Below, in pieces: positions 6,385-56,676 of a stretch of 64,000 nt of DNA. Numbering within the stretch: position 1 is the stretch's first letter; every line of letters starts with the position of its first letter. The stretch is taken from contig JAHEAA010000001.1 in the NCBI GenBank assembly GCA_019721035.1, forward strand, positions 39,991 to 103,990. Reading direction: 5' to 3'. The notes below the pieces were generated by a model. That model had not been told where the DNA came from, ran no database searches, and saw only the letters and a program-made list of their open reading frames with translations. Both the position numbers and the translations under genes were made by a program. This DNA comes from Candidatus Sysuiplasma acidicola. GTDB lineage: Archaea > Thermoplasmatota > Thermoplasmata > Sysuiplasmatales > Sysuiplasmataceae.

Positions 6385-6458
6385 TCGCTCATCGTGCGCT
6401 TAATCCACAGTCTCATACAAATGATTAATAACTGTGAATATGAATTGAACGGCCTGGA

Positions 6459-7487: not shown

Positions 7488-7493
7488 ATGTCT

Positions 7494-24986: not shown

Positions 24987-25191
24987 TAAGGCCGCTATTT
25001 CAGCAGATGCCAGGAATGTTCACCGTACGGCGCTAGATACGCGTATTATTTGAATATAACGCCGTAATAGTGGCGGTAACCGCTGGCGTTGGCGACTGAA
25101 AAAGTGTAATGAATCTTCCGTTTGTTTCTCGCCCATGCTCAATGCCTCCGTCAGCAATGTATTTTTATGCTATCCTGCTTCAGACTGTCAG

Positions 25192-38442: not shown

Positions 38443-38451
38443 GCTGGTGAT

Positions 38452-40386
38452 GTGATGTCTGAGGCCGAAACTATTGTTATTGAAAACGTGGATCCGGAGA
38501 TTGATTGCGGCAGTCATCCGGCGAAGCGCAAGGTGGGCGACACTGTCGTCGTCAGTGCGGATATATTTTCCCACGGAACAGACTTGCTTGCTGCCGATGT
38601 GCTCTACAGGAGAAAGGGACAGAATTCCTGGAAGAGGGCATCGATGGTGCATCTCGGCAATGACAGGTGGAGCGGACATTTCACGTTGGATGCCTGCGGC
38701 CTGTTCCAGTTCACCATTGAAGCATGGCGTGATCACTATTCAACATGGCTGGACAGGCTGAATAGATGGCACGCGGCACATGATGACATATCCCAAGACA
38801 TCAGGATAGGTGCCAGGATGCTGCGCGCCATGTCCGTGAATGCGGGGAGCAGCGGCCAATCACTGTCAGAGGCAGCCGACAGGCTGGAAAAACTGACAGG
38901 CGACGATGCCGTTGTCTTTGCAGGAAGCAAATCCGTCCTCCTGCTTGCCGCGTCCTTCCAGAAGAGGAGCACCACGCGTCTCGAGCAGGAACTGGAGATA
39001 TATGTGGACAGAACAATAGCCGGCTTTGCCAGCTGGTATGAGCTCTTCCCGAGATCGCAGGGAACGGTGCCCGGCAGGTCAGGCACGTTTGCGGATTGTG
39101 AAAGACGGCTTCCGGACATTGCCGCGATGGGCTTCGATGTCATCTACCTTCCTCCCATTCACCCTATCGGAAGAACGGGCAGGCGCGGAAAGGACGGCGG
39201 ACCTTCCCCTGGACCGGACGAACCGGGAAGTCCGTGGGCGATCGGAAACGAGCAGGGCGGGCACAAGTCGATACACAGCGAACTCGGAACCATTGAGGAC
39301 TTCAGGCATCTGATCATAAAGGCGAAATCCATGAACATTGAAATTGCGCTGGATATTGCCTTTCAATGCTCTCCCGATCATCCTTACGTGAAAGAGCATC
39401 CGGAGTGGTTTTATCACAGGCCCGACGGCTCGATAAGGTATGCGGAAAACCCGCCAAAGAAATATTACGACATTTATCCACTGGATTTTGAGAATGAAAA
39501 CAGGAAGGCGCTGTGGGAAGAACTCAGGAGCATCTTCGAATTCTGGATTGATGCAGGAATAAAAACCTTCAGGGTTGACAACCCTCACACCAAACCGTTC
39601 TCATTCTGGAAGTGGGTCATAGCGGAGTTGAGGAAGAAACACCAGGACGTGATATTCCTCTCTGAAGCATTCACTAAACCGAACGTGATGTATGAACTTT
39701 CGAAGATTGGTTTTTCGCAGTCTTACACATACTTCACATGGAAAAATTTCAATTTCGAACTGGAGCAGTATTTCAGCGAGATTTCAGCGCCCGGAATTTC
39801 AAATTTCTTCCGGCCGATGCTTTTCACAAACACGCCGGACATCCTTCCCTTCGTCCTCCAGACCGGGGGAAGGAATGCCTTCATCATCAGGGCCCTTCTT
39901 GCCGCAACGCTATCCCCGCTGTGGGGAATTTACAGCGGCTACGAGCTCTGTGAAAACGATGCGCTGCCGGGAAAAGAGGAATACAGGAATTCCGAAAAAT
40001 ATGAGATCAGGACGAGGGACTGGAACAGCCCCGGCAACATAAAGGCGTATATTGCGAAGTTGAATGAAATAAGGCGAGAGAACGCAGCGCTCCAGGAGTT
40101 CGGCAACATCCGTTTCCATCCCGCCGGCAATCCGAATCTCGTCTGTTACACAAGAACATCGGTCCGTGGCGATAATGTGCTTATGGTCGTTGCGAATGTG
40201 AATCCCTTTGAGGCGCAGGAAACACTCCTGCGTGTGCCTCTTTCTGAGCTTGGTGTAGCCTCGCCCGAAAACTACAGGGTGGAAGATTTGCTTTCGGGTG
40301 ATGTTTATACATGGCATGGCGAAAACAATCTCGTCAGGCTGGTGCCCGGAGAGGCATCGGCACACGTGTTTAAGGTCGTGCAATAA
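38452..40386 (+). CDS. glgE: Alpha-1,4-glucan:maltose-1-phosphate maltosyltransferase GlgE (GH13_3)
   Basis: 644 aa. N-terminal DUF3416-type domain (VVVSADIFSHGTDLLAADVLYRRKGQNSW). GlgE signature around the nucleophile, FRVDNPHTKPFSFWKW. ALDIAFQCSPDHPYVKEHPEWF matches GlgE region 2. Confidence 0.8.
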   Translation: MMSEAETIVIENVDPEIDCGSHPAKRKVGDTVVVSADIFSHGTDLLAADVLYRRKGQNSWKRASMVHLGNDRWSGHFTLDACGLFQFTIEAWRDHYSTWLDRLNRWHAAHDDISQDIRIGARMLRAMSVNAGSSGQSLSEAADRLEKLTGDDAVVFAGSKSVLLLAASFQKRSTTRLEQELEIYVDRTIAGFASWYELFPRSQGTVPGRSGTFADCERRLPDIAAMGFDVIYLPPIHPIGRTGRRGKDGGPSPGPDEPGSPWAIGNEQGGHKSIHSELGTIEDFRHLIIKAKSMNIEIALDIAFQCSPDHPYVKEHPEWFYHRPDGSIRYAENPPKKYYDIYPLDFENENRKALWEELRSIFEFWIDAGIKTFRVDNPHTKPFSFWKWVIAELRKKHQDVIFLSEAFTKPNVMYELSKIGFSQSYTYFTWKNFNFELEQYFSEISAPGISNFFRPMLFTNTPDILPFVLQTGGRNAFIIRALLAATLSPLWGIYSGYELCENDALPGKEEYRNSEKYEIRTRDWNSPGNIKAYIAKLNEIRRENAALQEFGNIRFHPAGNPNLVCYTRTSVRGDNVLMVVANVNPFEAQETLLRVPLSELGVASPENYRVEDLLSGDVYTWHGENNLVRLVPGEASAHVFKVVQ

Positions 40387-40388
40387 CT

Positions 40389-42041
40389 ATGACGGACAAT
40401 CTGTGGTTCAGGGACGCAATATTCTATGAGCTGCCTGTAAAGTCGTTCTACGATTCCGACGGCGACGGCATCGGAGATATAAACGGCGTGCGGATGAAAC
40501 TGGATTATCTGCGCGACCTCGGCGTCGACTGCATCTGGCTCCTTCCGTTCTACAAATCGCCGATGAAGGATGACGGCTACGACATATCCGACTTCTATTC
40601 GGTGCAGCCTGAATACGGCACGACGGATGATTTCAGGAATCTGGTCAGCGAGGCGCACTCCAAAGGTATACGCGTCATAGCTGATCTCGTTCTGAATCAT
40701 TGCTCCGATCAATGTTCGTGGTTCAGGGAGGCAGTCTCAAGCAGGGATTCACCGAAAAGGAACTGGTTCGTCTGGAGCGAAACAGGCACAGAGTACAGCA
40801 AGGCGCGCATCATATTCGTCGATACGGAAATTTCGAACTGGGCGTGGGAGCCGAGATCGAAGCAGTACTACTGGCACAGATTCTACAGCAACCAGCCCGA
40901 TCTGAATTACGACAATCCCGAGGTCCGGGAGGAGATGAAGAACGTCATGCGTTACTGGCTTCGATTCGGGCTTGACGGCTTCAGGTGTGACGCCGTGCCA
41001 TATCTCTTTGAACGCGAGGGAACAAGCTGCGAAAACCTCCCCGAAACGCACGCATACTTCAAAGAAGTCAGGAAGATGCTTGACAGCGAATTTCCTGGAT
41101 GCATTCTGCTAGCCGAGGCAAACCAGTGGATCACCGAAACAAAGACGTATTTCGGAGATCAGGATGAGTTTCACATGGCATTCAATTTCCCCCTCATGCC
41201 GAGGATGTTCATATCGCTTGCAAAGGAGGACTCTTTCCCTATAATCAACATAATCAAACAGATTTTGCCCATACCCGATAAGTGCGACTGGGGAATATTT
41301 CTCAGGAATCACGATGAACTTACGCTTGAAATGGTTACCGACGAGGAGCGTGACATAATGTACAGCGAATATGCGAAACATCCGAAGATGCGCCTGAACC
41401 TTGGCATCAGGAGAAGACTTGCGCCACTTCTTGACAACGACAGGCAAGCCATAGAGCTCATGCACGCCCTCATTCTGTCGCTGCCCGGATCGCCAGTACT
41501 TTATTACGGCGATGAAATAGGCATGGGAGACAACATATATCTCGGCGACAGGAACGGCGTCAGGACGCCGATGCAGTGGTCCTATGACAGGAATGCGGGT
41601 TTTTCCAGATGCGATGCAGAGCAGCTGTACACGCCTCCGGTCATTAGTCCCAATTACCATTACGAGAGCGTGAATGTCGAATCGGAAAACAGGCTGCCCA
41701 CATCCCTTCTGCAGTGGATGAGACGTATGCTGAAGATCAGGCGCCGGTACAGCCAGGTGCTCGGAAGAGGCGATATACGTTTTCTGGAGCACAGGAACAG
41801 GAAGGTCCTCTCATACGTGCGCACGTACGGAGAACAGAACATGATGTGCATTTTCAATCTATCCAGAAAGCCCACATACCTCGAGTTGAAGCTCCCTGAA
41901 TTCGCGGGACTCAGACCAGTCGAAACGATAACGGACGCGCCCTTTCCCAGGATCGGCGAGCTCCCATATTTCTTTACGCTTCAGCCGCATTCGTTCTTCT
42001 GGTTCAGTCTGACCAAGCCGGCGGAGAATGAAGAGGAATAG
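40389..42041 (+). CDS. treS: Trehalose synthase TreS (maltose alpha-D-glucosyltransferase, GH13_16)
   Basis: 550 aa. WFRDAIFYELPVKSFYDSDGDGIGDINGV..LDYLRDLGVDCIWLLPFYKSPMKDDGYDISDFY is near-identical in pattern to characterised TreS. Confidence 0.9.
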   Translation: MTDNLWFRDAIFYELPVKSFYDSDGDGIGDINGVRMKLDYLRDLGVDCIWLLPFYKSPMKDDGYDISDFYSVQPEYGTTDDFRNLVSEAHSKGIRVIADLVLNHCSDQCSWFREAVSSRDSPKRNWFVWSETGTEYSKARIIFVDTEISNWAWEPRSKQYYWHRFYSNQPDLNYDNPEVREEMKNVMRYWLRFGLDGFRCDAVPYLFEREGTSCENLPETHAYFKEVRKMLDSEFPGCILLAEANQWITETKTYFGDQDEFHMAFNFPLMPRMFISLAKEDSFPIINIIKQILPIPDKCDWGIFLRNHDELTLEMVTDEERDIMYSEYAKHPKMRLNLGIRRRLAPLLDNDRQAIELMHALILSLPGSPVLYYGDEIGMGDNIYLGDRNGVRTPMQWSYDRNAGFSRCDAEQLYTPPVISPNYHYESVNVESENRLPTSLLQWMRRMLKIRRRYSQVLGRGDIRFLEHRNRKVLSYVRTYGEQNMMCIFNLSRKPTYLELKLPEFAGLRPVETITDAPFPRIGELPYFFTLQPHSFFWFSLTKPAENEEE

Positions 42042-42044
42042 TCG

Positions 42045-43526
42045 ATGCGCCTGAACGCAAAACAGTTTGAAGACACCGCCCTTGAACAGCTTTCGCAGAT
42101 CATTCGCAGGCAGCGGTGGTTCAGGAGCAAGTCGAAGTCGGTGGATGCCGCAGACCTCGAGGATTTTTCATTCTTTGAGGCCGGGGGCAACTCGTTTGTG
42201 CTGCCCCTCATCCGTTTTGCCTACAGCGACGGAAGCAGCGAAACATACTTTGTCCCCCTCCTGTGCTCCGAACATGAGCATGGTGCGGGTGCGGGCTTCA
42301 GCTTTCATGTTCACGCAGGCGGCAGCGAGGTGCACTTCAGCGATGCGCTCCATGACAGCACATTTGTCCGGTCGCTGCTCTTCCTGATGGAAAGAGGGGC
42401 GACGATAGTATTCGCAAAGGGACGCCTCACAGGGCGCTCCATGATGTATACGGCAAGTATGCAGATAACGGCTGAAGTGCAAACGAAAGTTGTCTCCTCG
42501 GAGCAGAGCAACACTTCAGTAATGATAGGCAACCACTCAATATACAAGAGCTACAGGAGGATCGACAGGGGTATCAATCCCGATTACGAGATGCCGGAGT
42601 TTCTGTACGCGCACACCACTTTCAGGGCGTTGCCCAGGCCTCTCGGGAGGCTGGAATACCTGAACGGGGGAGAACATGCTGTCGGTGTGCTCAGCGAATA
42701 TGTGGAAAATGAGGGCGACTGCTGGACATATTTCCTAAGCAGACTGACAGAAGCCCTCAAACGGGGCGACGGCGTGAAAACCTGCTTTGAGCACGTGGCC
42801 GCCCTGGCAGGCATCACATCGTCAATGCACAACGCTCTGTCGGGCGCCGCACTGCCTGCTTTCACCCCCTCTCCTGTAAATGCCGAGGACATAAACGGGT
42901 GGATGAGCAATTATGAATCGCTGCTTCACTCAACATGCGCGACGCTGCGCAGATCGTCGGGCGGTCTGACGGATGAGGACAGAAAGCTTGCATTATCAAT
43001 TCTGGACGCGGAATACAAGCTGTCGCGGGCGGGTTCCGCGCTCCGTGTGCTCTCTGACGAGCGCGTATGTGCGACGAGGATACACGGCGATTACCACCTC
43101 GGTCAGATTCTGAAGGCAGGAACATCTTTCTTTGTCATAGACTTCGAAGGCGAGCCGATGAGACCACCGGAGGAGCGGAGGCGCATGAATTCTCCTCTGA
43201 AGGATGTCGGAGGCATGCTGCGCTCACTTGACTACGTAATCGGCGCGGCGGCTCGTTCAGCGGGCATCCCGGCCGGGGATGAAACGGTGGAGTCCTGGCG
43301 AAACGGAGCTGCCGAACTCTTCACAGTAAAATACATGGAAGGTTATTCGCCGTCGATGCCGTATCTTCCGTCGCGCTTTGCAGACATGGCAGACGTGCTG
43401 CATTTCTTCCTCGTGGAGAAGGCTGTTTATGAGCTTGATTACGAACTGAACAACAGGCCGGACTGGGTTCATATCCCGCTGGATGCACTCGTGCGTCTTT
43501 CGGCCGCATCCGGGGGCCCCTATTGA
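42045..43526 (+). CDS. mak: Maltokinase (Mak/Pep2), maltose 1-phosphate forming
   Basis: 493 aa. C-terminal aminoglycoside-phosphotransferase-like kinase motifs IHGDYHLGQILK and FVIDFEGEP. Immediately downstream of treS, as in the actinobacterial treS-pep2 pair. Confidence 0.8.
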   Translation: MRLNAKQFEDTALEQLSQIIRRQRWFRSKSKSVDAADLEDFSFFEAGGNSFVLPLIRFAYSDGSSETYFVPLLCSEHEHGAGAGFSFHVHAGGSEVHFSDALHDSTFVRSLLFLMERGATIVFAKGRLTGRSMMYTASMQITAEVQTKVVSSEQSNTSVMIGNHSIYKSYRRIDRGINPDYEMPEFLYAHTTFRALPRPLGRLEYLNGGEHAVGVLSEYVENEGDCWTYFLSRLTEALKRGDGVKTCFEHVAALAGITSSMHNALSGAALPAFTPSPVNAEDINGWMSNYESLLHSTCATLRRSSGGLTDEDRKLALSILDAEYKLSRAGSALRVLSDERVCATRIHGDYHLGQILKAGTSFFVIDFEGEPMRPPEERRRMNSPLKDVGGMLRSLDYVIGAAARSAGIPAGDETVESWRNGAAELFTVKYMEGYSPSMPYLPSRFADMADVLHFFLVEKAVYELDYELNNRPDWVHIPLDALVRLSAASGGPY

Positions 43527-43560
43527 GGCTCCGCAAACATCAAGGCAGGTGTATCTGTAA

Positions 43561-45681
43561 TTGAAAACAAAGCTTGGAAGACCGTATCCTCAGGGCGTTA
43601 CGCTTGAAAACGGCGGCGCCAATTTTGCACTGTACTCTGAGAATGCGACAGGCGTTACGCTCGAGTTGTACAACAGGCACGACAGCGGCACGCCGACCGA
43701 GCAGATAGAACTCCGTGAGAGGGACGGTTTCGTATGGCACATTCATGTTTCCGGCATCAAGCCAGGCGACCTTTACGGCTTCAGGGTGGACGGCCCCTAC
43801 AATCCTGGTACCGGGCAGAGGTTCAACAGAAATAAACTTCTCATTGATCCGTATGCCCGTGCAATAAGCGGCGTCATAGACTGGAATAATGATATTTTCG
43901 GCTATGACATCGGAGACGTCAACGGGGACCTCTCATTCAACAAAAACGACGACGCAGCCTCCGTGCCCAAATCGGTTGTTTCGGACAACGGATTTGACTG
44001 GAAGGGCACAAAGAATCCCCGGCTTCCGTGGAACAGAACGGTAATCTACGAAACGCATGTGAAAGGCATTACGGCGCTGCGGGAAGATGTAGATGTGCGA
44101 TTGAGGGGCACATACAGAGCTCTTGCTTCGCCCCAGATGATTGACTATTTCAAGGATCTGGGCATCTCGGCGGTGGAACTGATGCCTGTCCATCACAGAG
44201 TCGATTCCAAACACCTCGTGGACAGGGGTCTCTCCAACTACTGGGGATACAATACAATAGGTTTTCTTGCTCCCGACATAAGGTATTCGAGCGAGGACAC
44301 TTCAGGGCACCAGATCGTTGAATTCAAGGAAATGGTAAGGGCTCTTCACGCAAACAACATTGAAGTCATTCTTGATGTTGTTTACAACCATACTGCGGAG
44401 GGAAACCATCTGGGCCCGACGCTCTCTTTCAGGGGAATAGATAATTCTGTCTATTACAGGCTGAATCCCGAGAATCCGAGATACTACGTCGACTTCACCG
44501 GAACAGGGAACAGCCTGAATGTCCGCCATCCTCAAACGTTGCAGCTGATTATGGACAGCCTTCGCTACTGGATACTCGAGATGCACGTCGACGGATTCAG
44601 GTTTGATCTTGCATCGACACTGGCCCGTGAACTGTATGCCGTCGAACGGCTCTCCTCCTTCTTCGATGTGATACATCAGGATCCCGTGATTTCCCGTGTC
44701 AAGCTCATTGCCGAGCCGTGGGACGTAGGTCCCGGCGGATATCAGGTCGGCCGTTTCCCGATACTCTGGGCTGAATGGAACGGAAAATACAGGGATGCTG
44801 TGAGACATTACTGGAAAAACGACATCCATAACCTGGGGGAGTTTGCCACGCGCATCGCCGGCTCACAGGATCTGTACGGCAACGACGGAAGGAGACCGAA
44901 CGCAAGCATCAATTATGTCACATCGCACGACGGCTTCACGCTTCTGGACCTCGTCAGCTACAGCCGGAAACACAACGAGGCAAATATGGAAGACGGCAAG
45001 GACGGCACTGACGACAACATAAGCGAAAATTTCGGTGTCGAGGGTCCGACGGACGACGCATGCATCAACGACATGCGCTCCAGGCGGATCAGGAGTTTTC
45101 TCATCACACTGCTGACATCCCAGGGTATTCCTATGCTGCTCGGAGGCGATGAAATTGGCCGGACTCAGCTGGGAAACAACAACGCCTACTGCCAGGACAA
45201 CAGTGTCAGCTGGTACAACTGGGACATTGACGAGAGACGGAGAAGGCTGCTGGATTTTACGCGTCTTATGATACACATAAGGCTGAATTACCATGTGCTT
45301 CGCAGGAGGAAATTCTTCATGGGCGCCCCGCTGCCAGGAACGCAGGTGAAGGACATAATCTGGATGAAGCCGGACGGCGGCGAAATCGGGCAGGAAGAGT
45401 GGAATTCCGGCACAATGGCGATAGCAGCACTGCTGTACGGGAAGGGGATAGAGGACATCGGGTACGAGGGGGATGAGGTCCTGGAAGACGATCTGATGCT
45501 TCTATTCAATCCGGAAAAGACGCCTGTGGAATTCACCATACCTGAGGACTGGTCGTCCCAGGAGGTACTGATAGACTCGGAGGAGGGCAATCAGAATCGG
45601 TATCCGATACCGATGGACTGGAAGAAAGTCACCGTTGCCGCAGGGGGAGCTGCAATACTCAGGGGAAGGAGAAATCAGTGA
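43561..45681 (+). CDS. glgX: Glycogen debranching enzyme GlgX/TreX (GH13_11)
   Basis: 706 aa. N-terminal CBM48 GVTLENGGANFALYSENATGVTLELY. GH13 regions VILDVVYNHTAEGN, GFRFDLAST, EPWDVG and YVTSHDGFTL. Confidence 0.9.
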   Translation: MKTKLGRPYPQGVTLENGGANFALYSENATGVTLELYNRHDSGTPTEQIELRERDGFVWHIHVSGIKPGDLYGFRVDGPYNPGTGQRFNRNKLLIDPYARAISGVIDWNNDIFGYDIGDVNGDLSFNKNDDAASVPKSVVSDNGFDWKGTKNPRLPWNRTVIYETHVKGITALREDVDVRLRGTYRALASPQMIDYFKDLGISAVELMPVHHRVDSKHLVDRGLSNYWGYNTIGFLAPDIRYSSEDTSGHQIVEFKEMVRALHANNIEVILDVVYNHTAEGNHLGPTLSFRGIDNSVYYRLNPENPRYYVDFTGTGNSLNVRHPQTLQLIMDSLRYWILEMHVDGFRFDLASTLARELYAVERLSSFFDVIHQDPVISRVKLIAEPWDVGPGGYQVGRFPILWAEWNGKYRDAVRHYWKNDIHNLGEFATRIAGSQDLYGNDGRRPNASINYVTSHDGFTLLDLVSYSRKHNEANMEDGKDGTDDNISENFGVEGPTDDACINDMRSRRIRSFLITLLTSQGIPMLLGGDEIGRTQLGNNNAYCQDNSVSWYNWDIDERRRRLLDFTRLMIHIRLNYHVLRRRKFFMGAPLPGTQVKDIIWMKPDGGEIGQEEWNSGTMAIAALLYGKGIEDIGYEGDEVLEDDLMLLFNPEKTPVEFTIPEDWSSQEVLIDSEEGNQNRYPIPMDWKKVTVAAGGAAILRGRRNQ

Positions 45682-47438
45682 ACGGCAACAGTGAATGAAA
45701 ATGGTCTGAGTTCTGAGTCGGTTCTGCCGCAGCTCCCACCGTATTCTTTCCATTCAGAATTCAGCTCAATATTCCAGTGCGCTTCATGTTCAAGACGTGC
45801 GTTTGTCCCTGAAAGATTGAATCGCGCTCTCATCTTTCCGCCATATTCAAGAAGCATGATACCGTCGTGCTTGCTGCATTTGAAGTCATTTCTGAGCGTC
45901 GGTATATATCTCTTCCTGAGTGCCAGGAGATCGCGGTAAAGCCGAAGCATCCGGCCGGATTCCTCATCTGCCGTGTTCCATCTGAGTTTCGTCCGCTCGA
46001 ATGTTTCGAGGCTGTTCGGCTCGGGTGTGTCCTGCCAGTGGAACAGTTCAAACTCCTTCTTCCTTCCTTCGTAGACGGTGTTTGCGAAGTTCCTGTCATC
46101 CGTATCTATGAAAAAGAGAAACGGTGCCTTTTCGGCGTATTCCTCCCCCATGAAGAGCATCGGTGTGAATGGAGAGAGCAGAACCGCGCCGGCCGCAAAC
46201 CGCATCTTTTCCGGCGGTACGAGCACACTCAGCCTGTCGCCCTGGGCCCTGTTGCCTATCTGATCATGATTCTGAGAAAAAACGATGAGTTTCTCCCGCG
46301 GCATGCCGGCAAAGGGTGCGCCTCTCCTCCTCGCAAGATGTTTCGAGTATGCACCATCGTAAACAAAACCGTCTTTCATCGCCTTCAGTATGTAATCGGC
46401 ACTGCCGTAATCCTCGTAATAACCGCCGAGTTCGCCGGTGAGCACTGTATGGATGGAATGGTGGAAGTCATCATTCCACTGTGCGGAAATCCCGTAACCG
46501 CAGCTGTCACGTCCCCTGACAACTTTCGGATCATTGAGATCGCTCTCTGCAATCAGGTGCAGCCTCCTGCCTGTCTTCGACGATAATGCATCGACCCTTT
46601 CAGCCATCTCCCTGAGCAGATGCTTTGGCGAACTGTCCAGTATTCCATGTATCGCGTCGAGCCTGAGCGCGTCAAACCTGTACTGCTCCAACCAGTATAT
46701 TGCATTTGAAAGCACAAACTCTCTCACAGGATCGCAATAGGGCCCATCATAATTCAGCCCTGTTCCCCATGGTGTTCTGTATCTGTCGCTGAAAAACGGT
46801 CCGTATTTCGATAGGCAGTTTCCGACTGGTCCGATGTGGTTGTAGACGACGTCCAGAACGACAGCCATTTTTCTAGAATGTGCCGCATCCACGAGATGCC
46901 TCAGTTCGTACGGGCTACCGTAACTGTTTTGCGGCGCGTAGATGTACACTCCGTCATAGCCCCAGTTCCTGCTGCCGTAGAACTGTGCCACGGGCATGAG
47001 TTCAAGCGCTGTGATGCCGAGGTCTGCAAGATAGTCGAGTTTCTCCTCCACCGCAGAGAATGTGCCATTCCGTGTGAATGTGCCCACGTGTATTTCCATA
47101 ATCACGTAATCGCTCAACTCAATGCCCTTCCATCCGTCATCGCTTCCCATCCATCCGGCGGTGTCAACAATTTTCGATAGTCCGTGCACACCGTCTGGCT
47201 GGCATCTGGAGGCGGGATCCGGAAATACACCCTCCCCGTCGATTTCATAACCATATCTCATCGTGTCTTTCAGTGCCGCTGAACATTTCCAGAAGCCTCT
47301 TTCCTCTCTTTCCATAGGCACCTTTCGGCCGTCACCAAGTCTGAGCACAACTTCCTTCTTTCCCGGTGCCCATATCCTGAAGCAGGCATTACCGCCGTCA
47401 ACCAGTTCTGCACCGAATGTCATATCTTCAGAATCCAT
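45675..47438 (-). CDS. treZ: Malto-oligosyltrehalose trehalohydrolase TreZ (GH13_10)
   Basis: 587 aa. N-terminal FGAELVDGGNACFRIWAPGKKEVVLRL. GH13 regions VVLDVVYNHIGP, RFDALRLDAIHG, AESDLND and FSQNHDQIGNR. Confidence 0.85.
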   Translation of the reverse strand: MDSEDMTFGAELVDGGNACFRIWAPGKKEVVLRLGDGRKVPMEREERGFWKCSAALKDTMRYGYEIDGEGVFPDPASRCQPDGVHGLSKIVDTAGWMGSDDGWKGIELSDYVIMEIHVGTFTRNGTFSAVEEKLDYLADLGITALELMPVAQFYGSRNWGYDGVYIYAPQNSYGSPYELRHLVDAAHSRKMAVVLDVVYNHIGPVGNCLSKYGPFFSDRYRTPWGTGLNYDGPYCDPVREFVLSNAIYWLEQYRFDALRLDAIHGILDSSPKHLLREMAERVDALSSKTGRRLHLIAESDLNDPKVVRGRDSCGYGISAQWNDDFHHSIHTVLTGELGGYYEDYGSADYILKAMKDGFVYDGAYSKHLARRRGAPFAGMPREKLIVFSQNHDQIGNRAQGDRLSVLVPPEKMRFAAGAVLLSPFTPMLFMGEEYAEKAPFLFFIDTDDRNFANTVYEGRKKEFELFHWQDTPEPNSLETFERTKLRWNTADEESGRMLRLYRDLLALRKRYIPTLRNDFKCSKHDGIMLLEYGGKMRARFNLSGTNARLEHEAHWNIELNSEWKEYGGSCGRTDSELRPFSFTVAVH

Positions 47439-47453
47439 ATGTAATCACCATCT

Positions 47454-50213
47454 TCAGCCTATGCTGTACTCTATTCCTGAAAGAAGCACCGAGACCGGAA
47501 AGTCGACCAGAACATCCTTGACCATGAGTCTGCGGGCTGAATTCTTCCTGCCTGTGCCTGGCTTCCTGCCTGTAAACACGTCACTTAACACGGCAGGGAA
47601 GCCTGCGGGCAGGAGTATGCTTGTGTCGTTCCAGCTTCCCTGCCAGAGACTCTTTCGCCCTTCTCCGGTCAGCCTGGTTGTGTAACGGGGAACTGATACG
47701 ACAGCGCATTTCTCTCCAAGCTTCCTGGCAAACGACACGACGTTATTTTTTCCCGCTCCTGCCGTCTTCAGCGGAACGTAATCACCGTCCAGGAACAGGT
47801 CGCTCTCCTGCCTCCTCAATCTCAGAAGCAACCGTGTGAGATATGTCTTCACAGCACCGTCCCGGAATCTGCCTGCTAGTTCGGCTGCTGTATGACTGTT
47901 CCCTCTCCCGCTTAAACTCTGCAGGCGCTCCTTCAGTGAATTAAAGTCCGCAGGTCTCCTGTTGTCCGGATCCACAAAGCTGAAATTCCAGCCCTCTGAA
48001 CCCTGGTATGTATCAGGCACCCCGGGACACATTATTTTGAGTGTTACCATAGACATTGAATTCAGGAAGCCATGAAACGCCACTTTGCGCTGCAAGCGAT
48101 CAAACGATTTCATGAAACTGTCATTTCCGGTCGAAAGTATCTTTTCAATGAACTGCAGGCAGCATGATTCATAGGCTGTATCAGGTTTTTCCCATGAAGT
48201 ACAAGTGCCGCCTTCTCTCATGTATTTCACCATGTGTGCCTTCAGCCTCCTCCTCCATTCCCTTCTGCTCCCTTCCGGAGGCCTTGAGCCAAGTAGGATC
48301 TGATAAATGTAATATTCATCGCCGGGTGTCGGGCACAATCCTGATTTCCATTTTTTTCTGTATCTGTTATTGGCAGCTCTCCACCTCAGTATGTTCCTAT
48401 CCCACTCCTCCGGTATTTCAGACAGTACACTGATTCTGCATCTGAGGTCCTCGCCCATTTTTGTGTCATGTGTTGACGTACTGTTCATCGAATACGGATG
48501 GCGCCCGAAGCGTTCAACGATTTTCTTATGGAACTCCATGGACGTCAGACCGAACTCCCTGGGATCTGAACCAACTTCGTTCAGCGATACAAGTGCATTG
48601 TAATTGAAGAAGAATGTGTCCTCAACAGATTTTGCCATGGCCGCAGGCATAAGTTGCTGCAACCTCATTAGCGGGATTCGGAGAGATATGTCTGTTGCAG
48701 CATCATTCATCAGTGAGAGCAGCGCGCTCAGTTCAGTCTGCAGTTCCGGCTTGGTGACCGAAGCACTCTTCACCGCTTCACTGAATCTTTCGACATCGTC
48801 CTTATCGTAAGAGCCCTTGCTGAAATAGGTTCTGTAAACAGTCATATGTGCCAGGAACTCAATTACGGCTTCCTGCAACCCCTTCAGCGTGACATCTCTC
48901 CCGTACTTCCTGTCTTTCATGGAACCAAGAAGAATGAGTGAAACATTTGCGACATCCCCATCCAGCAGAGTTCGCACAACCTTTCTCTTCGTCTCGATCA
49001 CATTTTCATCAATGCTTCCGGAATATCCAGTAAATTTCCTGTATGTGTCTGTAATTGGTCCTCTGCTTTCAGGCATGACAAACAGTGAGTTTGTCCAGCT
49101 CATGAAATCATATCCAGTCGAACCATCCACAGGCCATTTCATGCTCAGGCGTTCGTTACCGCACGTGATCTTCTCTACGGCAACAAAGCAATTACCTATC
49201 AGTTCTCTCAATCTGCGAAGATATTCCACTGGATCAGAGAGGCCGTCAATGTGGTCAACCCTGACACCGTCGACCAGCCCTTTTCTGACAAGCTCACCTG
49301 CGAAGCTGTGCAATTCAGCGAACACCGGAGGATCCTCCACCCGCACAGCAATGAGGTCATTGACAGCGAAGAACCGTCTGTAGTTTATTTCACGTGACGC
49401 GCTGCCCTGCCATCGAAGCAGGAAATGCTGCTCCGACAATATCGCATCTATCTTCTCCAAATTTCTGTTGATTTCGGCAATAACCTGCCTGGCACTTCGC
49501 TCGAATCTCCTGTTCGAAATCAGTTTCCTGAATATTTCGACAGCGCTGGCAGAGTCGTCATTTACGGACGCGGCGAATTCAGAGAGCGCATCGGCATCTC
49601 CGGAAAGCCCGGACGCAATTATGTCGTCGATCAAATTCTTGTGAGTCCTTGAAGAAAGAGGAAGCCTGAAGCCGCGGTAGTCAACCATGACTCCATCATC
49701 CACAACAAGCTTCAGTTCGTGTTTTGCAAGCGCTTCATAATAGCCAGTTCCGAGGAAAGGTGCAACAACCTTTCCCTTCAGTCCCGGAGAATAATGATCC
49801 CAGTCGATGTCAAAGCAGACGCTGTGGGCGGAGGCCCGGCCATTCTCGAGAACATCTCTCAGAAGTCTGTTGCTGCGGTCAAACGCCATGTGATTAGGCA
49901 CAATCCCCTGCAGCCAGCTCATGCCTGCCAGATGCACCGCTTCTGACAGTGCCGTGAACTCTTCCAGCGTGCCAAACTCATGTCTGATTTTCGAAGCATC
50001 TGTAACGTCGTAGCCATGTCCGCTTCCCTGTCTCGCTTCGAAGATCGGTGAGGAGTAGATTGTTGTTGCTCCAAGTTCTTTCAGGCTATCTATAACCGCC
50101 ATTGCATCCCTGAACGTAAATTGAGGAGTGAACTGCAGCCTGTATGTGGAAACAATTTTACGCCACCCCTTACAGTCCGTACGGGCTGTTACATTTTCCT
50201 GTTTTTTTGTCAT
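47454..50213 (-). CDS. treY: Malto-oligosyltrehalose synthase TreY (GH13_26)
   Basis: STYRLQFTPQFTFRDAMAVIDSLKELGATTIYSSPIFEARQGSGHGYDVTD is the TreY N-terminal signature. GVRVDHIDGL follows. I place the start at MTKKQ... (50213). The ORF track extends to 50291. Confidence 0.85.
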   Translation of the reverse strand: MTKKQENVTARTDCKGWRKIVSTYRLQFTPQFTFRDAMAVIDSLKELGATTIYSSPIFEARQGSGHGYDVTDASKIRHEFGTLEEFTALSEAVHLAGMSWLQGIVPNHMAFDRSNRLLRDVLENGRASAHSVCFDIDWDHYSPGLKGKVVAPFLGTGYYEALAKHELKLVVDDGVMVDYRGFRLPLSSRTHKNLIDDIIASGLSGDADALSEFAASVNDDSASAVEIFRKLISNRRFERSARQVIAEINRNLEKIDAILSEQHFLLRWQGSASREINYRRFFAVNDLIAVRVEDPPVFAELHSFAGELVRKGLVDGVRVDHIDGLSDPVEYLRRLRELIGNCFVAVEKITCGNERLSMKWPVDGSTGYDFMSWTNSLFVMPESRGPITDTYRKFTGYSGSIDENVIETKRKVVRTLLDGDVANVSLILLGSMKDRKYGRDVTLKGLQEAVIEFLAHMTVYRTYFSKGSYDKDDVERFSEAVKSASVTKPELQTELSALLSLMNDAATDISLRIPLMRLQQLMPAAMAKSVEDTFFFNYNALVSLNEVGSDPREFGLTSMEFHKKIVERFGRHPYSMNSTSTHDTKMGEDLRCRISVLSEIPEEWDRNILRWRAANNRYRKKWKSGLCPTPGDEYYIYQILLGSRPPEGSRREWRRRLKAHMVKYMREGGTCTSWEKPDTAYESCCLQFIEKILSTGNDSFMKSFDRLQRKVAFHGFLNSMSMVTLKIMCPGVPDTYQGSEGWNFSFVDPDNRRPADFNSLKERLQSLSGRGNSHTAAELAGRFRDGAVKTYLTRLLLRLRRQESDLFLDGDYVPLKTAGAGKNNVVSFARKLGEKCAVVSVPRYTTRLTGEGRKSLWQGSWNDTSILLPAGFPAVLSDVFTGRKPGTGRKNSARRLMVKDVLVDFPVSVLLSGIEYSIG

Positions 50214-50368
50214 GCCGCCTCCCCTTACGCAGTTCTTCGTAATTAGTCTTGACAGAATCGTGCGACCTGCTTCGGCTCTAATCGGCTGCAAGATTTAGCC
50301 GGGGCGTAAAACCCCTGACAGTGAATGTGCTGAACGGAATGCTGCAGAGTATCTATTCGGTTTATTCT

Positions 50369-52579
50369 CTATCTGAAGATTTTCACTGATATCTTCGACT
50401 CTGAAAGAAGTCCTTTTCCGGAGGCTCCGAGCTTCCCTCTCTTATAACTTAATAGGATGGAACCGTATCTGCCGAAGTTCAGCTCGTGCAACCTGCTGAT
50501 GCCGTAGATGCTCACGGTCATCTTGCTAAACAATTTCTCATCCGCACTCTCTGATTTGCTGTCTGACCGTACAGTGATGCAGTTGCCTCTCACGAATACG
50601 GGGATCACTTCCAGAGGGGCGGTGTATTCTATCAGAGACGGGCCCTGCAACTTTCTGCCTGTCCAGAAATCCCACCACTTCCCTTCGGGAAGGTAGACGG
50701 TTCTCTCAACTCCGCGCGCAAGCGGCGCTACGAGAAGAGTTTCGCCGAGCATGTATTCATCCTGTATGTTCCTGGCGAACACATCATCCGGGAACTCGAA
50801 TACCAGGGCTCTGATGAGCGGTTTTCCCTCGGCCAAAGACTTGACTGACTGCCAGTAGAGGTACGGTATGAGTGAATACCTCAGTATGTCATACCCGGTG
50901 AAAATGGCCTCAGCTCTTCTGCCAAAATTCCATGGCTCCCTTGGCGTCGTTCCGTGCGCCCTTGAATGCGAAAACAGCAACCCCATCTGCGACCATCTGG
51001 CATAAAGTTCCGGACTCGGTTTTCCTGCGAAGCCGCCTATGTCGAAACTCATGAATGCGCCGCCCGAAAGAGAGTAGGAAAGTGCGCCCCTGAGAGCGGC
51101 AAGCATATCTCTCTCCGTGCAACTGGGATCACCGCCCCACTGAACCGGAAATCTGTGTATGCCCGTTCCGCCCGATCTGCCCCAGACGATTCCTTCACCT
51201 TTTTTCTCCCTGACTGTGTTGAATACTGTTTCATTATACAGTGTGGGAAGGGCGTTATGCGCCTCTCGGGAGTCAAGACCAAAATATCTGCCTGTCGACG
51301 GCGCCCCTTCTCCGTAATCGGTTTTCAGCACGTCCACTCCCTGATCGCACAATTTCCGCACCTGATCTGCATACCACTCCCTGGCAGCAGGATTTGTAAA
51401 GTCCACTGTTCCGAAATCATGCGTTATGCTGTCAAACTCTGCAATGGGCACGCCGTTGCCGTCCGTGACAAACAGTCCGTTTTCAAGAAGGTGCTCAAAC
51501 GCGTTTGAGCCCCTGGGGACGTACGGATTGATCCAGAGCGAAAGTCGAAATGACATTTCGTGGAGTTTCCTTATCATCCCCTCCGGGTCCGGAAAGAGCT
51601 GTTTGTTCCATTCGAACGTGCATCCTTCACCCGGATAGCCCATGCTGTTCATCTCCTCCGGATAGTCTGCGTTGAGCCGTTCCAGCAACTCCCCCGGAAC
51701 GCCGTAGTTGGTGCAGTATGACCGGGGGTCGATCCCCTTCTCCTTCAGCATCTCGATCAACGAATGCGGGACTGGCCTTCTGAGCCATTGGGGGTCCAGG
51801 TGCAGAACGTCGCAAGGCAGCCTCTTCTTCCTGATCTTCCTCGCAACATCCAGCAACTCCCTTTCGCTCATGTAGGAACAGCGGCTCATCCACAGACCGT
51901 ATGACCAGAGTGGCGGAACCTGCGGCTTTCCGGTTAGTTGCCAATATGCATCTACTATCTCCCACGGCTTTCCGGCGAAAAGGTAAATGTCTGCACTATC
52001 TTCTTCAATCACGATCTCTCCTGCGCCTTTGAAGTTTCGGCCGAAATCAAATCTGACAGCCGAAGTGGTGTCTACAAACAATCCGTAACCTCTCGTGCTC
52101 CAGAAAAATGGATATGTGACATATGTCTCGTCATTCGGCAGTGAGAGGGAGTCCTTCACGTTCACCGTCAGCTCCTGCCCGTTTCTGTTGATGTCGCCGA
52201 AGAATTCTCCAAGGCCGTATATTCCCTCATCTTCGTGTATTTCAAATGGAATGCTCAGACGTTTGTCTGAAAGGGAAAGCTTTGTGGGATGCCCTCTTTT
52301 ACCCGACGGCGGATTGGGCAGCATGTGCAGCAGTTTTGTGCCCTTGAATGAAATATTGAGCTCCGGAGGCTCAGTTGAAGCATCGACCGCGAAGTTTCCG
52401 GTCAGGAAGTGCACTTTTCGACCCCCCGGCGCAGTGGCTGAACCATAATGACCGAACGACATGCACATTGTGCTCTCCCCGGCCAGTCCAAGTTTTACTG
52501 AAACCGCAGCCTTCTGTTCTGTCCGGAAATGGCATGTTCCCGACGCCCTACCTGCCCCATTTTTCCTTTTCTGAATCAA
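50369..52579 (-). CDS. GH31 family alpha-glucosidase
   Basis: Up to 736 aa. The start is possibly at internal Met 52468. GH31 regions include CDVLHLDPQW, the nucleophile region GIVWGRSGGTGIHRFPVQWGGDPS and FMSFDIGGF (acid/base). Confidence 0.85.
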   Translation of the reverse strand: MIQKRKNGAGRASGTCHFRTEQKAAVSVKLGLAGESTMCMSFGHYGSATAPGGRKVHFLTGNFAVDASTEPPELNISFKGTKLLHMLPNPPSGKRGHPTKLSLSDKRLSIPFEIHEDEGIYGLGEFFGDINRNGQELTVNVKDSLSLPNDETYVTYPFFWSTRGYGLFVDTTSAVRFDFGRNFKGAGEIVIEEDSADIYLFAGKPWEIVDAYWQLTGKPQVPPLWSYGLWMSRCSYMSERELLDVARKIRKKRLPCDVLHLDPQWLRRPVPHSLIEMLKEKGIDPRSYCTNYGVPGELLERLNADYPEEMNSMGYPGEGCTFEWNKQLFPDPEGMIRKLHEMSFRLSLWINPYVPRGSNAFEHLLENGLFVTDGNGVPIAEFDSITHDFGTVDFTNPAAREWYADQVRKLCDQGVDVLKTDYGEGAPSTGRYFGLDSREAHNALPTLYNETVFNTVREKKGEGIVWGRSGGTGIHRFPVQWGGDPSCTERDMLAALRGALSYSLSGGAFMSFDIGGFAGKPSPELYARWSQMGLLFSHSRAHGTTPREPWNFGRRAEAIFTGYDILRYSLIPYLYWQSVKSLAEGKPLIRALVFEFPDDVFARNIQDEYMLGETLLVAPLARGVERTVYLPEGKWWDFWTGRKLQGPSLIEYTAPLEVIPVFVRGNCITVRSDSKSESADEKLFSKMTVSIYGISRLHELNFGRYGSILLSYKRGKLGASGKGLLSESKISVKIFR

Positions 52580-53818: not shown

Positions 53819-54058
53819 GTGCAGTGCCCTTGTTCAGGACAGGAACGATATTTCCATATGTTGCAGAATTGTAGTAATTTAAGATTCGTGGTTTGCTTTC
53901 TCCGCCAGTTCCTTCTTCGCGGCGAATCCATCAATTGCTGCCCGGCCTCTGAGATTTCTTGCTTCCTTTTTCAGCTGCATGCGCAATGCTCGAAGTGCAT
54001 CGAAAGCATGGCTCATGTGAATCAACTTTGATACGAGCAGATCGTATTGGGTGGATGT

Positions 54059-55054
54059 TTATGCAAACGAGCTGAGAACTGCTTCGTCAGCAATTGCCAT
54101 TGCATATGAAGCAATGGCCCTGATGTCTCTTGTGATCAGTGAAATTGACAGAAGGTTTTTTTCATCCATTCCCTTCATGAGCTTCAGGTAAGTCGTCTCG
54201 TGCAGTTTCCTCACTTTGCCCATTTTGTCGGTTATTGCTGATGCAAGGTTGACGTTTTTGTTCATAAGTGCTCTCGTCGTCATATCCAGCATTTCTGCCG
54301 CTGCAGCAGCCATTTCATTGATGGCCGCAGCCAGTGAAGCTTCCGGGCTCTTTCCGATCTCTCCGACATGCTGCGCTATGCGCATCGCGTAGTATGCCAC
54401 TCTCCCCAGTTCCCTGATGGCCATTGTCTGCACCATGACGCTGGACACATTCGGAAAATTCATCTGATTCCTCAGTTTCTTGTCGTTGGCTGCCTGGAAT
54501 GCAAGTCTCATCATCAGTCGGTAAACTCTCGTGCTCTCCACCCCCCTGTCGTAAGCATCCGTTGCAAGCGCTTTGTCATTCTCAATAAGAGCCTTGACAG
54601 CATCAAGTAATATGGCCGTCGAAGTTGCAGAAAATCGCTCAAGCAGTTTGTTAAGATCAAATTTGGCCGGATCAACCAGGTTCTGCAGTATCATCTGATT
54701 TGCAAATTCCTCTGAAATCTCTACGCCTATCAGTTTTTCAATGATATCTTTTATCCACTTTTTATGCTCCGGGAGCATCTTACGTTGCGCCACAACCTCT
54801 GTAATATCGTGCCCAAGAATGTAAGAAGCCGTGATGGACAACTCGAGAAGTTTCTGTTCCCTGAATTCGTCTATCTGAAGTGAATGGGGCGTGACTTCCA
54901 TTCTCGAATGTGTGGGGCTGACAATGATCTCGTCTTCCTCAAGCTCGATAGAGACGTGGTCGCCCTTCCTCATCTTCATTCTCTCTATCCAGTCTTTTGG
55001 AATCGTTATTACAAAAGTGCCTCCGGCGGTTGTCTGCAGCTTCCGAACTTCCAT
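54059..55054 (-). CDS. Archaeal phosphate-uptake-regulator homologue: N-terminal AbrB/SpoVT swapped-hairpin DNA-binding domain fused to tandem PhoU domains
   Basis: 331 aa. N-terminal MEVRKLQTTAGGTFVITIPKDWIERMKMRKGDHVSIELEEDEIIVSP (AbrB/MazE-like). The remainder is helical with PhoU-like repeats (AYYAMRIAQHVGEIGK..., IASYAMAIADEA). Confidence 0.75.
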   Translation of the reverse strand: MEVRKLQTTAGGTFVITIPKDWIERMKMRKGDHVSIELEEDEIIVSPTHSRMEVTPHSLQIDEFREQKLLELSITASYILGHDITEVVAQRKMLPEHKKWIKDIIEKLIGVEISEEFANQMILQNLVDPAKFDLNKLLERFSATSTAILLDAVKALIENDKALATDAYDRGVESTRVYRLMMRLAFQAANDKKLRNQMNFPNVSSVMVQTMAIRELGRVAYYAMRIAQHVGEIGKSPEASLAAAINEMAAAAAEMLDMTTRALMNKNVNLASAITDKMGKVRKLHETTYLKLMKGMDEKNLLSISLITRDIRAIASYAMAIADEAVLSSFA

Positions 55055-55359
55055 GATTATGACAGCTCCTCCTCATCAGTTGAGTGCAAACTTTGCATTG
55101 CATATGTAATATATGTATTTATCTTAGCTTCTATACAAGTCATTATTAATTTCCATAATTTACTTAGAGTTAAATAGAGGTATACGGTATCCACCACTGG
55201 TGCAAGCTTGGCAAAACTGAACAGTGCCCGCCTCACTGTCGGTTGTTCATGGAACGGCCGAGCCTGCACCGAAAACTCGAACGACCTGCCTGCTGGATGG
55301 ATCATGGTGCGGTTTCTGCACACAGGCAGCATCGATCCTGCTTTCTGGGAGAGAATGAT

Positions 55360-56676
55360 ATGAACAAGCATCTCGCGACTGAGGTATCCGAAATCGAGTC
55401 AGCATGGAGATCAGACAGATGGAACGGCATTGTGAGGCCGTACACTGCGGAAGAGGTTTGCAAGCTTCGTGGCTCCATTCACATTGATCACACACTTGCC
55501 AGGCTGTCTTCAGAGAAGCTCTGGAATTTGATTCAAAATGAGCAGCACGTGCTGGCACCCGGAGCGTCGACTGCCGATGATGCTGTGCAGATGGTACGTG
55601 CAGGACTTAAGGTGATACATCTCGGCGGTCAATCGATGAGTTTCGATGATGTGCCATCTACCCCGCTTCCGCATGAGCAGGGCAATGTTCAGTCTGCGGT
55701 GGACCCGGAGACGGTTGCGCGCATCAATGGTGCACTGCTTCTGTCCGACCAGCTCCACAAGACTGCCGGGAACGGCAATATTGACTGGCTCGCAGCAATC
55801 GTTGCGGAAGGGAAGACGGGGACGGACTACCCAATGCATGCGTACGAGTCCGCAAAGTTGTTAATCGAAGCAGGAGCTGCCGGCCTTTACTTCAGGGACA
55901 TGATCGCTGTGGGAAGGTCCCATCCACATGTTGACTGGAGGGCGCTGATTCCCACTTGCCAGTTCATCAGCAATCTTGTTGCGGCAAGGCTCGCGTCCGA
56001 CGTAATGGGCGTACCAACGGTCCTGATAGCAAAGACCGCTGCAAGAAGCGCTACTCTGCTCACAAACGACATTGATGAGCGTGACTACAGATATGCATCA
56101 GGCGAGAGAACAGATCTTGGTCACTACTGGATACGCGGAAGCTTGGAGACGGCCATTGAAAGGGCAGTGTCACTGGCGCCTTTCGCAGATATGCTATCCT
56201 ATGAAACAACGGCTCCTGACATTGAGGAGGCAAGAAAGTTTTCAGCTGCAGTCCTTAGCGAATATCCGGGAAAGCCCCTTGTCTACAGTTGCTCTCCTTC
56301 CCGAGAGTGGTTGAACGACATGACGCCTGAAGACATGACTGCTTTTCATGAAAGACTCGGCAGAATGGGTTACAGACTGCAGACCGTGGCAGGGACATCT
56401 CTGGCGGGCGCAAATGCTCCGACATCCCTTTCAGAAGAGAATCTTGCATCGGTGGCTCTGACTGCTCGCATGAGTGTGCAGAAGAGTCGGGCAAAGCAGG
56501 AAATGGGCGTAACTGCATTAACGGGTGCACGTGATCCGCTTGGTTCCATATATTTTGCCGAGGTGTCGAAACTCATATCACGTGTGCCTCGATTCCAGTA
56601 TGTGTATGGAATGACCGGAAGCACCGACGCTTCGGCACAGCAGGTAATGGTCGTCCAGAAAGCCGCTGGCAGGTGA
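55360..56676 (+). CDS. Isocitrate lyase (ICL/PEP-mutase superfamily) homologue with substituted catalytic motifs. Probable pseudoenzyme or neo-functionalised paralogue.
   Basis: 438 aa from ATG 55360. Strong ICL-specific N-terminus WRSDRWNGIVRPYTAEEVCKLRGS (E. coli AceA: WTQPRWEGITRPYSAEDVVKLRGS). Conserved LIEAGAAGLYF, LVAARLASDVMGVPTVLIA and YSCSPSREW (AceA NCSPSFNW). The AceA catalytic positions differ: HFEDQ is YFRDM, SVKKCGH is AVGRSHPH (Cys replaced by Ser), DAEAGFGG is AEGKTGT, ARTDA is AKTAA. Confidence 0.8.
   Translation: MNKHLATEVSEIESAWRSDRWNGIVRPYTAEEVCKLRGSIHIDHTLARLSSEKLWNLIQNEQHVLAPGASTADDAVQMVRAGLKVIHLGGQSMSFDDVPSTPLPHEQGNVQSAVDPETVARINGALLLSDQLHKTAGNGNIDWLAAIVAEGKTGTDYPMHAYESAKLLIEAGAAGLYFRDMIAVGRSHPHVDWRALIPTCQFISNLVAARLASDVMGVPTVLIAKTAARSATLLTNDIDERDYRYASGERTDLGHYWIRGSLETAIERAVSLAPFADMLSYETTAPDIEEARKFSAAVLSEYPGKPLVYSCSPSREWLNDMTPEDMTAFHERLGRMGYRLQTVAGTSLAGANAPTSLSEENLASVALTARMSVQKSRAKQEMGVTALTGARDPLGSIYFAEVSKLISRVPRFQYVYGMTGSTDASAQQVMVVQKAAGR

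Follow-up and report, generated by a model that had tools for sequence, protein, structure and literature searches.

Isocitrate lyase (ICL), the product of aceA, carries a KKCGH motif that has been described as essential (PMC12088919), and the four acidic Mg2+ ligands of the active site are described as required across the superfamily (PMC11982470). In our literature searches ICL pseudoenzymes were not described; the closest case on record is Rv1916 (AceAb) of Mycobacterium tuberculosis H37Rv, which lacks KKCGH, shows no isocitrate turnover and binds acetyl-CoA (PMC12088919). Here we describe a full-length gene of ICL ancestry in a 64,000-nucleotide stretch of DNA from Candidatus Sysuiplasma acidicola (GenBank assembly GCA_019721035.1, contig JAHEAA010000001.1, positions 39,991 to 103,990 of the forward strand), which is referred to below as the window and supplies all coordinates given without a locus name. 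The gene, at 55360-56676, encodes a 438-aa protein that lacks the catalytic Cys and is maintained by purifying selection in a small archaeal clade. Judged by its active-site residues, it has most likely lost the ability to cleave isocitrate. We assign a probability of roughly 55% to the reading that it is a non-catalytic, repurposed ICL kept for a non-enzymatic role.

Family identity and active-site residues

The open reading frame (ORF) is uninterrupted on the forward strand and starts at ATG 55360, with GGGAGAG at 55347-55353 just upstream, which agrees with the intact frame and good start reported in a preliminary description of this DNA. A longer start at TTG 55243 was rejected: in homologous loci the frame ahead of the ATG is broken by stops or indels (as in L006 and L009), and the homologues all begin with MN[KR]. 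An antisense ORF of 104 aa (55057-55371, reverse strand) that spans the intergenic region is open in the window alone and is regarded as spurious, since in the other loci it is broken or has no start codon. The parts of the gene that matter for the active site are:

55360..56676, forward strand: ICL-derived protein, 438 aa; TIM-barrel scaffold kept, catalytic Cys and most of the Mg/glyoxylate site gone
55624..55704, forward strand: former glyoxylate/Mg loop, codons 89-115 (canonical SGWQ...YPDQSLYP)
55906..55950, forward strand: former catalytic loop, codons 183-197, with the clade motif AVGR[SA][HN][PA][HY]VD[WR]RAL in place of the canonical sequence
56380..56544, forward strand: former succinate-binding/swapped C-terminal region, codons 341-395, degenerate

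The protein belongs unambiguously to the ICL family. It matched Pfam PF00463 (E=2.9e-50) and the ICLs in the PDB (E=1e-97 to 1e-74), the best of which was the Chloroflexus aurantiacus enzyme 6lrp (E=1.1e-97, residues 6-423), and its identity to solved ICLs is ∼40-43% over the whole chain. An AlphaFold2 model had a mean predicted local distance difference test score (pLDDT) of 76 and a predicted template-modelling score (pTM) of 0.78, and in Foldseek it matched ICL crystal structures with a template-modelling score (TM) of ∼0.70. The homology proposed in the preliminary description is thereby confirmed, and the strings it quoted (GRSHPH, YFRDM, AEGKTGT, AKTAA and SCSPSREW) are all present. No PrpB, PEPM or other subfamily model of the ICL/PEP-mutase superfamily rose above noise for the protein (prpB TIGR02317, 21.6 bits against a cut-off of 354), and the PDB matches to petal death protein, OAH and DMML were weak (E 0.0025-0.2); ICL is the better match. 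The scores were nevertheless below both curated ICL equivalog cut-offs, with 347.6 bits against 562 for NF011645 and 266.9 bits against 275.9 for TIGR01346. The protein is identical to NCBI MBX8635315.1 and MBX8645218.1, which are named 'isocitrate lyase [Candidatus Sysuiplasma acidicola]'.

The stretch from F-x-D to L-I-P-T could be aligned without gaps, the canonical segment pairing with YFRDMIAVGRSHPHVDWRAL, and the loop between FxDx and LIPT is as long as in canonical ICLs. The register of KKCGH is therefore fixed by the invariant blocks on both sides: K-K-C-G-H corresponds to R-S-H-P-H in the window protein, where Cys is replaced by His and the loop His is retained. In three groups of relatives introduced below (P0002-P0004) the equivalent is R-A-N-[PA]-Y, with Asn at the Cys position and Tyr in place of the loop His. 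The four acidic Mg2+ ligands (D108, D153, E155 and E182 in M. tuberculosis ICL) are E106, E150, K152 and R179 in the window protein. The first two are conservative Asp-to-Glu changes, and the other two, Glu to Lys and Glu to Arg, reverse the charge. Relative to canonical ICL, SGWQ has become GGQS, YPDQS has become PHEQG, DAEAGFGG has become EGKTGTDY, RTDA has become KTAA, NCSPS has become SCSPS and TLAG has become AGTS. From the M. tuberculosis ICL1 structures we take S-G-W, the Arg of R-T-D, N-C-S-P-S and T-L-A-G to be the residues that bind glyoxylate and succinate; the window protein has G-G-Q, K-T-A, S-C-S-P-S and A-G-T at these places, and just two Ser survive. The residues kept are D180 (the Asp of F-E-D-Q), E282 (the Glu of W-C-E-T-S), T226 (the Thr of R-T-D) and both Ser of N-C-S-P-S.

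These assignments correct the preliminary description in part. It had read the loop as Cys to Ser and His to Pro, which is one residue out of register. Its statement that every catalytic-motif residue is substituted holds for the Cys and is overstated for D180, E282, T226 and the two Ser. It had also allowed that a faulty alignment might conceal a catalytic Cys and the acidic ligands; the register was indeed wrong by one, but the Cys is absent and two acidic ligands are lost all the same.

Distribution and selection in the clade

In a search of 5.8 billion proteins grouped into 90%-identity clusters, just four other clusters were found to group with the window protein: P0001 (95% identity), P0002 (67%), P0003 (58%) and P0004 (57%). 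Beyond this clade the identity falls to the ∼43% seen with canonical ICLs, and an exhaustive scan of the 50%-representative library yielded P0003 as the single clade representative. By taxonomy the clade falls in the Thermoplasmata, in Ca. Sysuiplasmatales and its relatives. P0003 is represented by a locus from a Thermoplasmata metagenome-assembled genome, and one further cluster member bears the name 'hypothetical protein [Methanomassiliicoccales archaeon]'. Assemblies from NCBI, ENA, Logan and JGI, with contigs of up to 232 kb, supply 17 + 5 + 4 cluster members that are this protein or closely similar to it.

The Cys of KKCGH is absent from all clade members, which share the loop motif VGR[SA][HN][PA][HY]VD[WR]RAL. 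When 116 canonical ICLs were used as a reference, 67 of the 178 columns conserved there at a level of at least 97% were kept in all five clade members. The Mg2+ ligands differ within the clade. Listed in the order window, P0001, P0002, P0003 and P0004, the D150 equivalent is E/E/E/E/D, the E152 equivalent K/K/E/D/D and the E179 equivalent R/R/G/E/E. This drift is the pattern expected if the general base was lost first and the remainder decayed after it, and as far as alignments can tell it favours a dead enzyme over a new one. The C-terminus also varies, giving lengths of 417, 428 and 436-438 aa.

Between clade lineages, the ratio of nonsynonymous to synonymous substitution (dN/dS or omega, Nei-Gojobori method) was 0.13-0.32 for the whole ICL-like gene, while the proportion of synonymous differences (pS) was 0.58-0.70, which means that synonymous sites are saturated. 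A full-length frame of ∼1.3 kb without stops or frameshifts is present in all four or five lineages. As dN/dS is this low at saturated synonymous divergence, the gene is not a pseudogene. Constraint is unevenly spread. Omega was 0.03-0.11 in residues 198-340, the second half of the barrel, and 0-0.28 in residues 181-197, the former catalytic loop; it rose to 0.6-1.0, near neutrality, in the former glyoxylate/Mg loop (residues 89-115) and to 0.4-0.9 in the former succinate-binding/swapped C-terminal region (residues 341-395). The near-neutral segments coincide with the stretches of the AlphaFold model that have a pLDDT below 50, residues 91-110 and 346-392. The preliminary description had argued against simple decay and had named dN/dS as a check, and both the overall values and those of residues 198-340 uphold it. 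Its wider suggestion of a pseudoenzyme or a repurposed ICL is supported by the clade-wide absence of the Cys, the purifying selection and the recurrence of the ORF in independent assemblies.

The ICL-like protein evolves quickly for its family and its locus. Within the clade it is just 57-68% identical, whereas the regulator encoded next to it is 79-89% identical (omega 0.04-0.06); between the canonical lineages L029 and L011 the two proteins are at similar levels (regulator 64%, ICL 66%). Canonical ICLs are highly conservative: identity between archaeal and Brevibacillus enzymes reaches 68-76%, with 68-71% for the L029 enzyme. In a neighbour-joining tree the clade sits on a long stem branch.

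Some members are mosaic. L008 (P0002, positions 1-330) and L004 (P0003, positions 593-920) are ∼99-100% identical over the leader and the first ∼45 codons and 66% identical over the remaining gene, and L028 combines a P0003 body with another leader and N-terminus. As three further assemblies reproduce the N-terminus of P0002, genuine recombination seems a better explanation than a chimeric assembly.

Locus, divergent regulator and 5' leader

The gene is preceded by a divergently transcribed regulator and a long 5' leader:

54059..55054, reverse strand: AbrB(SpoVT)-PhoU regulator, 331 aa, the divergent neighbour
55100..55180, no strand assigned: AT-rich divergent promoter region, conserved in the window, L001, L006, L009, L026 and L028
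55199..55274, forward strand: conserved 5' leader domain, 76 nt, from GGTGCAAG to TGCACCGAAA, with a predicted outer stem, inner stem and hairpin
55275..55359, forward strand: remaining 5' leader, less conserved, in which GGGAGAG can pair with an upstream UCCUG

The divergent PhoU/AbrB regulator mentioned in the preliminary description is the gene at 54059-55054, and every clade locus long enough to include this side of the ICL-like gene (L001, L002, L006, L009 and L026-L028) has it in the same divergent position. Its family is small, with 133 matches at E<=1e-30. Outside the clade, the regulator is divergent from malate synthase and canonical ICL in L011 (regulator 6847-7842, 50% identical), from canonical ICL and malate synthase in L029 (4726-5721, 62% identical) and from malate synthase and ICL in L031 (Nitrososphaerales, 6001-6996). 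In L030 (4398-5393) and L032 (6001-7017) it is divergent from a malate-synthase-like gene. That gene (L030 1520-4279, L032 3113-5880) is ∼30% identical to the malate synthase of L011 and is followed by a 180-aa protein and a hemerythrin, with no adjacent ICL. In every Thermoplasmatota or Nitrososphaerales locus examined, the family thus divergently adjoins malate synthase and/or ICL, be the latter canonical or degenerate. In about ten further regulator/ICL pairs the longest contigs recorded for the two proteins are of identical length, which is circumstantial support. Although annotated as 'phosphate uptake regulator', the 331-aa AbrB-PhoU family would seem, from its gene neighbourhoods, to regulate the glyoxylate shunt and not phosphate; a literature search on AbrB-PhoU control of the glyoxylate shunt found nothing relevant. 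A link to phosphate by way of the PhoU domain and a polyphosphate gene cluster in L004 and L028 was considered and set aside; the cluster is absent from the window and L001 and is therefore not counted in the unit. The P0003 sub-lineage carries this phosphate/polyphosphate cluster as an insertion that separates the ICL-like gene from nth (L004 2114-9292, L028 1-6358); the cluster contains HPP, CHAD, two thymidylate-kinase-like genes, Ppx/GppA, His_Phos_1 and phosphoesterases.

Malate synthase, the product of aceB, lies beside canonical ICL in L011, L012, L014, L018, L024, L025, L029 and L031. It has been lost from the locus described here: tblastn found no malate synthase in the 64-kb window or in any clade locus, and the intergenic region holds no remnant. 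Because the same regulator is divergent from aceA/aceB in relatives, the window gene is an in-place descendant of aceA. No second ICL was found in the window, and the 120 top-ranking relatives of the closest canonical ICL, judged by organism label only, included no canonical ICL from Sysuiplasma.

The intergenic region proved more conserved than expected. Within the divergent promoter region a TATA-like sequence, TTAAATAG, is located at 55170-55177, and the leader domain begins ∼25 nt downstream of it. Two ATATGTA repeats (55102-55108 and 55111-55117, arranged as ATATGTA-AT-ATATGTA) are conserved in all clade loci and may be an operator for the AbrB-PhoU protein. The predicted fold of the leader domain has an outer stem GGUGCA/UGCACC, an inner stem and a hairpin CAGUG-CCCGCCU-CACUG (55222-55238), whose loop CCCGCCY is invariant across leaders. 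The domain surpasses the coding sequence in conservation: it is 68-88% identical between lineages (window/L001, L004 and L009), compared with 44-49% at third codon positions, and its folding z-scores are -3 to -4.9. Copies are located at L001 9828-9915, L004 615-690, L009 1625-1700, L026 3764-3839 (reverse strand) and L028 7781-7856 (reverse strand). In the closest relative (L001-L003) the leader contains a 12-nt tandem duplication (TTGGCAAAACTG twice, L001 9842-9865), which is absent from the window.

A covariance model of the leader (R1) detected one copy per clade locus; its hits were all at degenerate ICL genes, and canonical aceA/aceB had none in front of them. The JGI metagenome collection was scanned twice by pattern without a match, and a search of Rfam 15 returned noise alone (E >= 2.4), with no hit over 55199-55359. 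The leader was also considered as coding sequence and as a relic of malate synthase; it is non-coding on either strand and has no similarity to malate synthase. In the outer stems of four lineages 7 pairs vary, and in each of them pairing is preserved by one-sided changes compatible with G-U. The covariation test on these lineages found no double compensatory change in the outer stems and the shuffle controls were not significant, so that an RNA structure is plausible but unproven. We regard the leader as a candidate cis-regulatory RNA, and its existence suggests that expression of the degenerate gene matters.

The surroundings of the unit are as follows. In L001 an acetyltransferase gene and a Cas12f/TnpB-like fragment (7648-8667) separate the regulator from a tRNA-binding-domain gene, where the window has a bare 240-bp gap (53819-54058). 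A large alpha-glucan/trehalose gene cluster occupies 36265-52579, with GlgB, an alpha-amylase-like gene, TreS, a Pep2-like maltokinase and GlgX on the forward strand and, according to the annotation of the homologous L001 genes, two alpha-amylase-family genes and one GH31 gene on the reverse strand. KdpB is encoded at 32058-34271 and ValRS at 25135-27774.

Possible roles and relation to known systems

The history that we favour begins with the aceA of an archaeal glyoxylate-shunt unit under a divergent AbrB-PhoU regulator. In the Sysuiplasma-type lineage malate synthase was lost from the locus and the general-base Cys from ICL; the Mg2+, glyoxylate and succinate sites would have degenerated afterwards, and the protein was retained. 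The ICL-like barrel fold most likely persists without cleaving isocitrate, and the new role may be that of a non-enzymatic binding protein, such as a sensor, adaptor or scaffold. It would probably work through the half of the barrel that is under constraint (residues 198-340) and through the Arg-rich loop (residues 184-196), which is remodelled and conserved, and the ancestral regulated promoter would drive its expression by way of a new structured 5' leader. Several observations weigh against this account. The overall dN/dS of the gene is 3-5x that of the neighbouring regulator, so that constraint is real but relaxed. Acids that could bind a metal are kept (E106, E150, D180 and E282), and in the basal P0003 and P0004 three of the four ligand positions are acidic, which makes a metal site possible in some members. 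The conserved former catalytic loop could, moreover, mean a new catalytic device instead of a binding surface.

This last point leads to a less probable alternative, namely that the barrel is still catalytic and performs another chemistry, or acts on another substrate, within the ICL/PEP-mutase superfamily. The device would be the new loop, with R186, D192, R194 and the His or Asn at the Cys position, and the conservation and constraint of this loop in the clade would then be explained. PEP mutase has Asn, and oxaloacetate hydrolase Ser, at the position of the ICL Cys, and the Asn of P0002-P0004 fits this series. The three acidic ligand positions of P0003 and P0004 and the existence of other KKCGH-less ICL homologues with HFEDQ also speak for a new enzyme. 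The characterised reactions of the superfamily, however, all need a metal held by four acids (PMC11982470); these positions are not conserved in the clade and include Lys and Arg in the window protein. The oxo-acid-binding loop is, in addition, near-neutral and predicted to be disordered, and the models of the other subfamilies score at noise. That the protein remains a working isocitrate lyase, with the losses due to misalignment or offset by substitute residues such as His188 as base, is very improbable. The NCBI name, the high overall similarity and the His at the Cys position would speak for it, but the gap-free alignment between invariant blocks fixes the register, the His position is Asn in P0002-P0004, and the S-G-W, R-T-D and T-L-A-G residues and the Asn of N-C-S-P-S have changed too. 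The failure to reach either equivalog cut-off and the lack of a malate synthase partner at the locus point the same way.

A functionless relic, left under relaxed selection after loss of the shunt and with a frame that is open only for the time being, would account for the fast evolution relative to the regulator, the two near-neutral segments, the variable C-termini and the disappearance of aceB. We consider it unlikely, as full-length frames persist in four or five lineages at saturated synonymous divergence, 143 codons have an omega of 0.03-0.11, and a dedicated, highly conserved leader with a Shine-Dalgarno-like sequence is maintained upstream. An artefact of sequencing or assembly is scarcely credible: all sources are metagenome assemblies and the 5' ends are mosaic between lineages, but the protein recurs across the databases listed above and on long contigs, and the mosaic N-terminus of P0002 is itself reproduced. 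A speculative variant, to which we give little weight, follows the analogy of aconitase and the iron regulatory proteins (IRP): a dead ICL turned regulator that would act on, or with, the structured leader of its own mRNA within the old AbrB-PhoU circuit. The leader, with its hairpin loop CCCGCCU, and the Arg-rich loop would in that case have arisen together. This is compatible with the data because the leader is found just with degenerate ICL genes and both leader and loop are constrained. The repurposed, non-catalytic ICL is the reading that we retain.

Since NCBI and JGI label the protein 'isocitrate lyase', metabolic reconstructions would err and a glyoxylate shunt would be wrongly inferred for Ca. 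Sysuiplasmatales and related acid-mine Thermoplasmata. The clade would offer a natural example of enzyme death, in which the base goes first, the metal ligands drift and two substrate segments become neutral while half of the barrel and a rebuilt loop stay constrained. The 331-aa AbrB-PhoU family is a candidate archaeal regulator of the glyoxylate shunt in Thermoplasmatota and Nitrososphaerales, and the leader is a candidate for an uncatalogued, highly conserved structured RNA element. Pseudoenzymes as such are already known; what this case adds is the evolutionary reconstruction, the misannotation, the association with the regulator and the leader.

Degenerate ICL paralogues are not unique to the clade. 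Of the 269 family sequences in hand, 59 have no K[KR]CGH, and about a dozen full-length ones are broadly degenerate in their motifs. In the 50%-representative library, P0136, P0138, P0139, P0141, P0142, P0143, P0145, P0159 and P0222 are likewise full-length or nearly so, with a degenerate catalytic loop and often a degenerate SGW/YPDQ; they come from lineages unrelated to the clade of the window. Characterisation of these homologues was not found in the searchable literature, and non-canonical ICL homologues seem to be fairly common and unstudied.

With canonical AceA (C. aurantiacus 6LRP/6LRT and M. tuberculosis ICL1 1F8I) the window protein shares the family, the fold and the length, as well as the N-terminal helices, the barrel strands and the EAGAAG and AARLA-DV-GVPT motifs, and its gene has the same position in the locus as aceA in L029, L011 and L031. 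It differs at the Cys, both loop Lys, two Mg ligands, the glyoxylate-binding SGW and Arg and the succinate-binding Asn and Thr, and further in its degenerate C-terminal region, the lack of a malate synthase neighbour and its scores below the curated cut-offs. Rv1916 is likewise derived from ICL and devoid of KKCGH, and sets a precedent for an ICL remnant that binds a ligand but does not catalyse. It is, however, a fragment (the C-terminal regulatory domain of ICL2) that arose from a strain-specific frameshift of a split ICL2 gene, whereas the window protein has the whole length of an ICL1-type barrel, owes its divergence to substitutions and is conserved throughout its clade. In IRP2, a member of the aconitase family, and in bacterial trigger enzymes, the fold of a metabolic enzyme is used for sensing or regulation, either once catalysis has been lost or beside it. 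The window gene resembles them in the retained enzyme fold and in an untranslated region with a predicted hairpin structure, a likeness that is functional only and drawn by analogy.

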